From: Nitrospirales bacterium
GTDB taxonomy: Bacteria > Nitrospirota > Nitrospiria > Nitrospirales > UBA8639
Reading direction: 5' to 3'
Length of the DNA stretch: 64,000 nucleotides
Assembly (NCBI GenBank): GCA_963422365.1
Contig: OY729426.1
Span: 1,312,001 to 1,376,000, forward strand
Below are positions 15,001 through 18,000 of this stretch, piece after piece. The position numbers are program-made. Numbering within the stretch: the first letter of the stretch is position 1; the number at the start of each line of letters is the position of its first letter.

Positions 15001-18000
15001 ATCATGGCCAACGTCTCGAATCCTATTGAAAAAAATGAACAGATCCAACGAGTCGCTGAACGACTAGGGGTCAGACCGCAACTTCTTCTCGACCGCTATT
15101 CCACCGTGCTCGATCGTCAGCAAGGCGTTTTTTCCCGACGCCAGGGGAAATCGTCAATGCCACCCTCTCGCAATCGACGAAACGAACAAAGGGAATTTCG
15201 AGAGGAACGTGAAATCGTCTCGTTGATGGTGCAAGGGGGATTGCATCCAGAACATCTCAAAGATCTGCGTCCTGAGGATTTTCAGTCGCCCCTCTATCGC
15301 CAGCTTGTGGAGATAGGGTTGCGGCATCTCGATGCGGAAGGTGGGATCGATTTCCCTGGATTTTTCGCGGAAACCAGTTCTGATGAGACGTGTCGTGATT
15401 CGGTTGCGGAGTTAGCTCTGTCCGTTACGTATTTTGAGGACCAGTATGAGTATATTCAAGGTTGTTTGAGAGTGTTGGTGCAAAGAAACTTGAAAACCCG
15501 TCTAGATGAACTGATTGCTCAGCTTCGAATTGCCGAACGAGAACAACGAACGGGTGAAGTGGATCATCTTAATTCCCAAATCGAAGCGTTGCGTGGAAGA
15601 AAAGCCGGGTTAGCCTCCTCCCCACTGTAGCATCAGGATAAGGGCCCTTATGGCAAAGACTATCGTCGCCAAGATACGGAAAGAAGAGTTGATTTTTAAA
15701 AAAAAGAGCAACCGGTTGGTGGGACAGAAGGTGCGATCATCATCCACAAAGGTTGGTCCCTCTGGCGTCCAACACCAGAATCTGTTTGCCTCCCCCGGAG
15801 GCTCCGTTCAGAAACGCATAACGGGCGGGCAGTCACAGACTCAATCTCTTTCTGAAACGCCATTTGAGCCAGCTTCGGGTTCCGAGAAAACCGAGAAACA
15901 GGAAGATGTATTGGAAAAGAATGCCCAGGAAATTGATCTCAACCCTGGTGATTTGAGTCGAACGGATGATCCTGTCCGGCTGTATTTGCGAGAGATGGGA
16001 AGCGTGCCGTTACTCACCCGGGAAGGGGAGATTGAGGTAGCGAAGAAGATTGAGGAAGGCAAAGATGAGATGACGTTGGTGCTGGCGGGGCTGCCGATGA
16101 CCTGGGAGGGGCTGGACAGGTGGAGGGGGCAACTGAAGAAGCGAGTTGTGCGCGTGGGCGAGGTGGTTCTGGTGCGTGATCCTGCGGAAGACGAAGACCT
16201 GGAGGAGCCGGAGTTAGCGGAAGCGCAAGAAGAAGGGCTTCGGCAAGAGGCGCTGATCGGGCTGGAGGAGGTGAGGCGGTTAGGCAAGACCCTGGGACGG
16301 CTGTATGAGCGGCGGCGGGCGGCCCCGGCTGAGCAGCACGTGCGGTGGGCCAAACGGGTGCAGGCGGTGCAGCAGCAGGTGGTGGCCCGGGTGGAGGCGT
16401 TGCATTTGCAACCGGCTGTGCGAGAGCAGTTGGTCATGCAGATCAAAGAAGCGGGCCGGGCGGTGCGGAGTGCGGAGCGGGTGTTGCGGGAGAGGAGAGA
16501 GGGGCCGGGCCGGCCGGGGGGGACGAGGCGGCAAGACGCGCAGGCCACGCTCAAGCGGGTAGAGCAAGAAGAGACGTGGTTACCGACCGCCGAGTTTACC
16601 TGCGCGCTGGCGGGGTTAGAAGGGGCTGAAGAAAAGATGAAGCGGGGGAAAGCGGAGTTAATCGAAGCGAATTTGCGGTTAGTGGTGAGTATTGCCAAGA
16701 AATACACGAATCGGGGGTTGCAGTTTTTAGACCTGATCCAGGAAGGCAACATTGGCCTCATGAAAGCCGTGGACAAGTTTGAATACCAGCGGGGGTACAA
16801 GTTCAGCACGTATGCGACGTGGTGGATTCGGCAAGCGATCACGCGAGCGATTGCTGACCAAGCTCGGACGATCCGGATTCCGGTGCACATGATCGAAACG
16901 ATCAACAAGCTGGTACGGACCTCGCGGCATTTGGTGCAACAGTTGGGGCGGGAGCCGACCCCGGAAGAGATTGGGGTGCGGATGGAGATGCCGTTAGAGA
17001 AAGTCCGGAAGATTTTGAAGATTGCGAAGGAGCCGATTTCGCTGGAGACGCCGATTGGCGAAGAAGAAGACAGTCATTTAGGGGACTTCATTGAAGACAA
17101 GAAGGCGGTGTCGCCGTTAGAGGCGGCGGTGCGGTATGACTTGCAGCGGCACATTGGGCAGTCGTTGGACTCGTTAACGCCGCGGGAGGAGCAGGTGTTG
17201 CGGAAGCGGTTTGGGATCGGGGAGGCGACGGATCACACGTTAGAAGAAGTGGGGCAGGACTTTGAGGTGACGCGGGAGCGGATCCGGCAGATTGAAGCCA
17301 AGGCCTTACGCAAACTCCGCCACCCGACCCGGAGCAAAAAATTGCGCAGTTTCGCCGAAGGATTTTAATCTTTGGAAACAGGGGAAAGGGTCTTGCACAT
17401 TCGTGCAAGACCCTTTTTTTATCATGCGGAATCAAGTCAAGTTCGTGAGGTTTTTTCGTGTGGATCGATGAGGAATCGTAAGCCGGGGTAAATAGAGCAT
17501 CTCACGAGCGCTTTACTTTTCGACAAGGGCGAAGGTACCCTTTTGAGGTTCCTGTAAATGAAATTTCTCGGAACCAGCCGAATGGTTGACCTAGCCTGAT
17601 GAATCGAACTGAACGAAGACGACAAGCCAAGTTGACGGCCAAGTCTCCAGCATCGTCCAACGCGGTGTTTGTGAAACAAATGTTTGAGGAGGCGATCAAC
17701 CATCATCAGGGGGGTCGCTTGTCTCAGGCCGAAACCTGTTATCAAAAAATCCTCACGGAGGATCCTGCCCATGCCGATGCCCTTCATTTGCTCGGGTTAA
17801 TTGCGTACCAGCAAGCCCAGTATGGTCGAGCCCTCGATTTGATCACGAAGGCTATTCAACACAATGCGACAAAGCCTCTCTATTTTTACAACCGGGGACT
17901 CATCCATCAACAACTCAATCAATTACATGAGGCTGAACAGTCCTACCGACAAGCCCTCTCGCTCAAATCCGATTATGTCGAGGCATTGGGGAATCTGGGG

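Follow-up and report, generated by a model that had tools for sequence, protein, structure and literature searches.

This Nitrospirales genome, which belongs to a group of nitrite oxidisers, carries two complete genes for the primary sigma factor RpoD whose cores, to judge from sequence comparison, are homogenised by concerted evolution while their N-terminal heads descend as separate orthologues, the shared core being strongly enriched in G on the sense strand. Concerted evolution with a GRINS-like skew in a primary sigma gene was not found in print for rpoD within the literature searched (most subscription journals, and likewise the literature using the term GRINS, lay outside its coverage), and the earlier note's failure to find a paper on concerted evolution of rpoD stands within those bounds.

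Two rpoD genes in one genome

The window is the 64,000-nt stretch of DNA that was analysed (contig OY729426.1, 1,312,001-1,376,000), and positions refer to it unless marked contig (Table 1). The genome is a single 2.50-Mb contig in which a terminal overlap of 58 kb was left untrimmed. From codon 122, in region 1.2, to the stop codon, copies A and B have 1356 bp in common at 99.93% identity, with one synonymous mismatch; over codons 1-105 their identity is 44.6%. The claim of two full, near-identical genes with N-termini about 44% identical is thus upheld. Both copies carry the group 1 sigma-70 regions 1.2, 2, 3 and 4 together with a non-conserved region, and their best relatives of solved structure are RpoD chains. 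The acidic region 1.1 of Pfam, a criterion for group 1, is absent from both copies of this genome, and the dnaG-rpoD gene order typical of group 1 is seen at copy A only. By cumulative GC skew the origin is close to 0.70 Mb and the terminus close to 1.95 Mb, which puts both genes on the leading strand, as had been stated before. Contigs assembled from short reads of runs X4 and X5, which belong to two studies, branch at exactly positions 16013 and 17368 into B-specific sequence, and the X5 contig of copy B shows the one G>A difference at 16951 again; since independent contigs reproduce the junctions and, in X5, also the mismatch, the repeat is real and not an artefact of assembly. The promoter scan gave one match against 1.9 expected in shuffled sequence, none above chance.

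Table 1. Features of rpoD copy A, its neighbours and its partner gene (window positions unless marked contig; region 1.2 residues are numbered from alignment to the E. coli sigma70 chain)
Feature	Position	Strand	Remarks
Sigma-70-like promoter match, TTGACT-17-TATAAT with extended TG	13680..13708	+	upstream of dnaG; consensus match alone
dnaG primase	13789..15630	+	ancestral upstream neighbour of copy A; order dnaG-rpoD-CT398 in outgroup families
rpoD copy A, 572 aa	15650..17368	+	immediately 3' of dnaG; Pfam regions 1.2, NCR, 2, 3, 4
A-specific N-terminal head	15650..15964	+	basic segment and acidic linker in place of region 1.1; no Pfam 1.1
Unconverted first helix of region 1.2	15965..16012	+	T105, L113, R114 (E. 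coli T94, M102, R103)
Gene-conversion tract	16013..17368	+	1356 bp, 99.93% to copy B; fourfold sites 75% G, 5% T; formally GRINS
Deletion site of about 34 codons, non-conserved region	16500..16545 (approximate)	+	in both copies; private to this genome in alignment with relatives
Sole A/B difference in tract, synonymous	16951	+	G in A, A in B; recurs in run X5
Terminator-like 14-bp hairpin and T run	17385..17420	+	3' of copy A; from sequence by eye, absent from scanner list
TPR-domain gene	17599..19290	+	swapped flank; ancestral place downstream of B, now downstream of A
rpoD copy B, partner of A	contig 177785-179491	-	outside window

Distribution of the paralogues and loss of copy A

Two near-equal rpoD matches occur in 20 of the 38 genomes of the genus (g1), as claimed earlier, and G032, in which copy A is split across contig ends, adds a 21st. 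Seven further genomes have copy B alone, copy A being deleted or decayed; two fragmented bins also gave B alone, and eight multi-contig bins had no core match to this query. The two heads of G011 stop at contig edges, as expected of a collapsed repeat. Across the family (115 genomes), two copies are found outside g1 in three of the seven g12 genomes and in G038. Among Nitrospiraceae, 32 of 33 genomes had an rpoD match, single in 31, and the examples examined show a canonical region 1.1 and the order dnaG-rpoD-CT398.

The family has three rpoD paralogues: A, linked to dnaG, B, lying 3' of an HTH gene, and C. The duplication had been assigned to the genus and one sister genus; it is indeed old, but because copy B occurs also in g2, g3, g7 and g11 it must be older than both. 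The genus reported to be without duplicates relies on the third paralogue. An origin of the core from outside, as a xenologue, was rejected, the 79% matches in g13 being that third paralogue and Nitrospiraceae rpoD being 89-91% identical.

Copy A is absent from the g1 clade with B alone and from g3, g10 and g13/g8; G039 keeps it as a pseudogene and G056 as a remnant; the g13 and g8 genomes examined have lost it cleanly, and their best match is paralogue C. Loss of the dnaG-linked copy, previously ascribed to one sub-lineage, is confirmed for the g1 clade but has happened several times elsewhere too, and copy A is dispensable in that it was repeatedly lost, seven genomes persisting on B alone. 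In four of four single-copy genomes checked earlier, dnaG was said to be followed directly by CT398. In the seven B-only g1 genomes copy A is gone, but tRNA-Met stands between the two genes in 7/7, and some keep a decayed remnant of copy A.

Concerted evolution of the core

Core identity between A and B of one genome is 88.2-99.9% in the 20 two-copy g1 genomes, and in 18 of them it is higher than any between-genome value; the exceptions are G024 (88.2%), whose non-conserved region is converted in part, and G037 (96.5% vs 97.9%). In a tree of the cores, A and B of the same genome group together as sisters in 19 of the 20. Both patterns had been put forward for every genome, and so hold with two exceptions and one, respectively. 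The heads behave in the opposite way, with 37-45% identity within a genome vs 60-99.7% to the same-locus head of other genomes, which bears out their description as locus-specific orthologues. As with tuf genes, then, the paralogues are closer within than between genomes while their loci, by heads and flanks, are orthologous. These patterns, with the private 34-codon deletion in both copies in support, show the cores to be homogenised by concerted evolution, presumably through a RecA-type mechanism as in the Salmonella/E. coli model. Loss of mismatch repair was considered as a trigger and rejected as far as MutS is concerned, its N-terminal domain being present in 74/74 family genomes.

Several stages of the process can be seen. 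Unconverted A/B pairs with paralogue-specific residues persist in G038 (69%) and G062 (73%), conversion covers all but region 4 in G060 and G064, and in most g1 genomes it reaches about ten codons short of the stop, the paralogue-specific residues vanishing stepwise from g2 through g12 to g1. In all 22 genomes with conversion, the 5' boundary falls 39-60 nt into region 1.2. Polarised differences number 85 in A and 89 in B (19 focal genomes, G024 excluded), and since derived differences fall equally on the two, neither copy is a fixed donor.

Exchange of flanks

The ancestral arrangement, dnaG-A-tRNA-CT398 and HTH-B-TPR, is retained in 4 of the 20 two-copy g1 genomes and in G038, G060, G062 and G064, while the downstream flanks are swapped in the other 16, this genome included. 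In 14 of these 16 the A head is joined to the B tail and the TPR gene, and the B head to the A tail and the tRNA; the swapped genomes with homogenised tails are this one and G017. As the last codons travel with the downstream flanks, the point of exchange lies inside rpoD. The earlier proposal that recombination had swapped the flanks gains from these travelling tails; its counts have to be revised to 16 swapped and 4 ancestral, and the events number at least three, since in the species tree G031, with ancestral order, is nested in the swapped clade and g12 has a swap of its own (G059, G058). G003 may be a fourth exchange or a short-read chimera. Orientation of the copies is unrelated to flank arrangement (13 same-strand and 7 opposite among the 20). 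A crossover without loss of DNA implies inverted copies and so suggests an inversion; present orientations are mixed.

Two heads and the first helix of region 1.2

With hhalign, the g1 B heads match outgroup region 1.1 at 96.4% probability (score 47, where shuffled sequences reach 13 at most) and the A head fails to align with it (0.2%). Pfam 1.1 is intact in three basal B copies (G038, G039, G044). The B head is thus a decayed region 1.1, and the statement that neither N-terminus has Pfam 1.1 holds for this genome but not for those three. Net charge is +8 to +18 in A heads (20 g1 copies) and -6 to +8 in B heads; where B is the only copy left (seven genomes), its head is long and has become strongly basic (+12 to +39), probably in one event. 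The heads as a whole are weakly constrained, with dN/dS of 0.56 (A) and 0.34 (B). The unconverted helix of region 1.2 is under strong purifying selection, with values of 0.014 (A) and 0.073 (B) in 16 genomes. The position of E. coli R103 is R/K in 26/26 A copies and N in 40/40 B copies, and that of T94 is I/V in copy B (I in this genome's B). Passages of PMC5101437 name E. coli M102 and R103 as the most important discriminator contacts, and passages of PMC7822876 have T94, R99 and R103 touching the beta gate loop. Because the heads are unconverted and separately selected and the -10/-35 domains are identical, the cell is predicted to encode two sigma-70 isoforms of identical -10/-35 specificity, which would differ in open-complex behaviour.

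G skew of the converted tract

In each of the 40 rpoD genes of the two-copy g1 genomes, G makes up 64-94% and T 0-5% of the fourfold sites in the tract, against 21-40% G in the heads of the same genes and 31-41% in dnaG. The earlier note does not mention this bias. In this genome the tract has 75% G vs 23% in the head (P=6e-13; the genomes are related by descent, and P values are therefore overstated). The top four genes by fourfold G, among at least 1639 scored here, are tufA, tufB (80%) and both rpoD; the 969 unrepeated leading-strand genes have 34 +/- 6%, with a maximum of 55%. Among single-copy genes, those with high expression show a mild excess of G (nxrA 50%, maximum 55%), and some single-copy outgroup rpoD reach 53%. 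Expression-linked codon choice was rejected as the cause of the skew on the evidence of fusA and ribosomal-protein genes, which are unskewed at 28-43% (fusA of this genome, 37%).

Other repeated genes share the bias. Fourfold G of tuf is 47-97% (30 genomes), that of fusA 18-44% in the 22 of them where it is visible; in six Nitrospiraceae the figures are 55-78% for tuf vs 26-40% for fusA. In five genomes with several nxrB copies (at least 99% identical) nxrB has 56-80% G and 1-3% T, and in nine single-copy genomes 29-56% G and 4-19% T, with G035 reaching 56% G. Unconverted pairs are unskewed (rpoD 26-31% G, nxrA 40-47% G). In nxrA of G065, G rises just where identity between the copies rises, and in G039 rpoD the skew is confined to regions 2-4, the part in which 236 nt of the pseudogene are 96.6% identical. 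Exact recent duplicates of this genome are unskewed (33-46% G). The rpoD of B-only genomes, at 49-57%, is near the tuf of that clade (62-65%), and by reason of this resemblance a relaxation of G after loss of the partner is not cleanly visible. Adhesin repeats of this genome have mixed G/C ratios.

Flank skew is positive at all 40 two-copy rpoD loci, where leading and sense strand coincide. G still exceeds C (56:37, 67:31) in inverted nxrB pairs of which one member, as judged from the skew of its flanks, lies on the lagging strand; this points to a skew that follows the sense strand. Under a non-reversible model (163 tract vs 722 control sites) A and T are lost 10- to 30-fold faster in the tract, these A/T rates resting on few sites; the substitution rate is 2.5-fold that of control genes, and C>G is 15-fold higher. 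Differences between A and B at fourfold sites are mostly G>A (30 vs 2 A>G), an excess that base-calling errors may inflate, although one site checked was real; C>G and G>C are balanced (14 vs 14). Two-fold C/T sites in this genome's tuf change little (0.34 vs 0.37 background). Across 50 genomes, which are not independent, fourfold G rises with the share of Gly, Arg, Val and Trp in the non-conserved region (rho 0.87).

Comparison with known systems

In the sections available of PMC5485169, tufA and tufB of Salmonella likewise lie far apart on the chromosome as two versions of an essential gene; non-reciprocal transfer keeps them nearly identical, with tracts that end at diverged sequence; tuf gene conversion is treated also in PMC8022953, likewise available in part. 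Unlike them, rpoD converts in part, its heads are separately selected orthologues, its copies had once diverged to about 70%, and it is a transcription regulator with a strongly G-skewed tract, whereas E. coli tufA is unbiased (fourfold G 27%).

GRINS, known from polyketide synthases and mobile elements according to the main text of PMC8256042, are duplicated regions of >500 bp at >80% identity with a skew; the rpoD tract has 1356 bp at 99.93%, |GC| 0.33 and |TA| 0.17. The skew cut-offs are passed by 36 of the 40 two-copy g1 tracts and by 28 of 885 single-copy genes. The tract is therefore formally a GRINS, but a G-only variant. Its TA skew is mostly protein composition, a similar one being found in single-copy outgroup rpoD, and the positive correlation of GC and TA skew that is typical of GRINS, though outside the formal definition, is absent (GC +0.33, TA -0.17, r 0.01). 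Where GRINS as described in that text have correlated G+T or C+A skews with sign flips, the rpoD tract has G up and T down, uniform in sign and uncorrelated. Its authors propose that skew promotes conversion, whereas our controls favour the reverse direction. The available text of that paper mentions no sigma factor, and one supplement text has no hit for sigma, rpoD, Nitrospira or elongation factor; other tables could list such genes.

The alternative primary (group 1-like) sigmas of Burkholderia and actinobacteria (PMC2194791) resemble the present case in that several RpoD-like paralogues with all promoter-recognition domains occur in one genome; in the available parts of that paper they are diverged throughout, with no reported homogenised core. 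GC-biased gene conversion in bacteria is debated, with PMC4450053 for it and bioRxiv 10.1101/2024.05.31.596828 against, in the portions available of each. In such conversion recombining sequence loses A/T, amino-acid-changing sites included; the rpoD tract too moves from A/T to G/C, on few sites. Such studies, in those portions, deal with allelic recombination and symmetric GC gain, whereas here paralogues recombine and the gain is strand-asymmetric, sense G standing far above C (median fourfold composition 77% G vs 17% C). In the archaeal TFB family (PMC3261711), duplicated general transcription factors likewise recombine coding and promoter parts; in the accessible text that conversion is proposed and simulated with a synthetic gene, with no fixed boundary or skew described, unlike rpoD.

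Origin of the two genes and of the skew

Taken as a whole, an account of ancient duplication, ongoing core conversion, separate heads, flank swaps and a G-driven tract is in our judgement probable. An old duplication in the family gave the group-1 sigma genes A (dnaG-rpoD-tRNA-CT398) and B (HTH-rpoD-TPR locus). Ectopic homologous recombination, as in tufA/tufB, in most lineages homogenises the sequence between the middle of region 1.2 and a point close to the stop codon, the N-terminal ~120 codons being too diverged for conversion and under separate selection. Isoform A, with a basic tail and R103, and isoform B, with a decayed region 1.1 and N103, would probably differ in how they contact the discriminator, in the stability of the open complex and in the control of promoters. 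Occasional resolution as a crossover exchanges the downstream flanks, presumably with inversion. The weakly constrained heads, the repeated loss of copy A, and the failure of G024 and G037 to be closer within than between genomes all stand against this account.

A quite different possibility, to which we give virtually no weight, is that the copies are recent independent duplications in each genome, or arise from assembly collapse or polishing: all the genomes are metagenome assemblies, and this contig has its untrimmed overlap, but locus-specific heads and flanks are orthologous between genomes, and for this genome the short-read junctions and single mismatch refute it. It is a serious, if minority, prospect that both copies do the same job, through redundancy or dosage, their heads being too dissimilar to convert and the fixed boundary marking a barrier of divergence with no selection behind it. 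The heads do change quickly, copy A has been lost in the lineages listed above, and in Salmonella large sequence differences block conversion, according to the sections of PMC5485169 cited; yet the invariant contrast at the R103 position and the low dN/dS of the helix right beside the tract speak for distinct roles, as do the strongly basic B heads of genomes that lack A, even if they probably reflect one event.

As to the skew, recurrent heteroduplexes would have their mismatches resolved or mutated toward sense-strand G until fourfold sites reached the observed composition, and the same drive would bring Gly, Arg, Val and Trp into the non-essential region. Biased mismatch resolution is the cause we prefer, with restrained conviction. 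Mismatches of the types G:T, G:G and G:A are recognised better than A:C, C:C and C:T; more speculatively, if repair strips the template strand in transcribed DNA, an allele with G on the sense strand would beat all others. Plain GC-biased conversion does not predict the scarcely shifted C/T two-fold sites of tuf. The main rival, itself tentative, is that sense-strand G is added by errors of repair synthesis, or where single strands are damaged in the course of recombination, with no bias between alleles. The raised substitution and C>G rates agree with it, the GRINS paper (PMC8256042, in its available text) suggests error-prone replication, and since as many differences are C>G as are G>C, a mutational bias fits as well as a repair bias; against it, differences between the copies are mostly G>A, yet the fixed composition is G-rich, as if A/T alleles were purged. 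Finally, in the model of the GRINS authors a G-rich stretch arose before conversion, e.g. through high expression or codon selection, and then favoured it. Mild G-richness of highly expressed single-copy genes and of some outgroup rpoD lends this some appeal. It is improbable and already largely contradicted: the head on the same transcript, fusA and ribosomal-protein genes are unskewed, three unrelated gene families are skewed just where copies are near-identical (the 3' part of G039 rpoD and G065 nxrA among them), and exact recent duplicates are not. The controls favour conversion preceding and causing the skew.

Implications

As a housekeeping gene, rpoD is usually assumed to be present once per genome and is used as a marker in phylogeny. 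In this family it forms a set of three paralogues that undergo conversion and crossover, and from which the canonical copy has dropped out repeatedly. How GRINS arise, and whether bacterial gene conversion is biased at all, are unsettled questions on which the rpoD/tuf/nxrB system bears. It offers matched controls, in that converted and unconverted parts can be set against each other within one gene, converted pairs against unconverted ones, and multi-copy against single-copy orthologues in three gene families, with inverted pairs besides; cause and direction of the skew thereby become testable. The G bias extends to the protein sequence of an essential regulator, and in this order it would distort codon-bias indices for tuf, nxrB or rpoD as well as trees built from them. 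A broader reading, which we think unlikely though worth stating, would make partial conversion a design principle of the primary sigma factor in Nitrospirales, with one co-edited promoter-recognition core and two separately regulated heads that differ at a discriminator residue, and would make a drive toward sense-strand G, arising in this order from a transcription-oriented bias of mismatch resolution, the explanation of GRINS-type skews, overriding codon usage and remodelling proteins. If both isoforms are used, they would represent an undescribed way of regulating the primary sigma factor without altered promoter recognition.

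Sigma factor paralogues in related genomes

The dnaG-linked rpoD has been lost in genera g13, g8 and g10 (dnaG loci L107 and L109-L111), where the best RpoD is the third paralogue, C (L099, L100, L101 and L135); the residues of this paralogue are atypical in both region 2.4 and region 3.0, yet its region 1.1 is intact. The dnaG-linked sigma factor of genome G042 (L108) is highly divergent (44%). In genome G039 (L116/L142) rpoD-A is a pseudogene with an internal deletion, its 3' part sharing 96.6% identity with the B copy of the same genome. RpoD-B of genome G007 (L076) has a Lys/Ala-rich head of 200 residues, weakly resembling the histone H1-like HC2 (E 0.046) and reminiscent of the N-termini of actinobacterial SigA/HrdB. 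The two dnaG-rpoD loci (L128 and L129) of the Nitrospiraceae genome G134 lie at the ends of different contigs and probably reflect a mixed bin. A further sigma-70 paralogue (L174) appears frameshifted in the host genome; in many relatives it is intact, at 500-550 amino acids.

Additional features of the contig
Feature	Coordinates	Strand	Remark
Terminal overlap	contig 1-58333 and 2437343-2495695		untrimmed, 58 kb, 99.8%
tuf copy 1	contig 1536301-1537506		outside window
tuf copy 2	contig 1552367-1553587		outside window
Exact 4-kb duplication	contig 1660473-1664526 and 1737266-1741319
Additional sigma-70 paralogue (L174)	contig 2270361-2271865	-	about 49%
HNH-like nuclease ORF opposite DNA-methyltransferase-like ORF	window 19460-21783	+ / -	by eye only

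The last two ORFs could form a restriction-modification pair. The contig is a circular genome whose two ends repeat each other, the overlap containing giant tandem-repeat adhesin-like genes (fourfold G 57-59%).

G skew in other duplicated genes

Fourfold-site G is 80% in the duplicated tuf genes of the host genome and 47-97% in tuf across the order (loci L143-L172 and L195-L208), the co-transcribed fusA giving 18-44%. The genes of the exact 4-kb duplication, which by their motifs resemble Pup-proteasome components, lack the skew, consistent with a recent duplicate. Among loci L175-L194, nxrA is skewed only where its copies have been converted, and the skew of nxrB is restricted to genomes with near-identical nxrB copies, with consequences for phylogeny and primers based on this gene.
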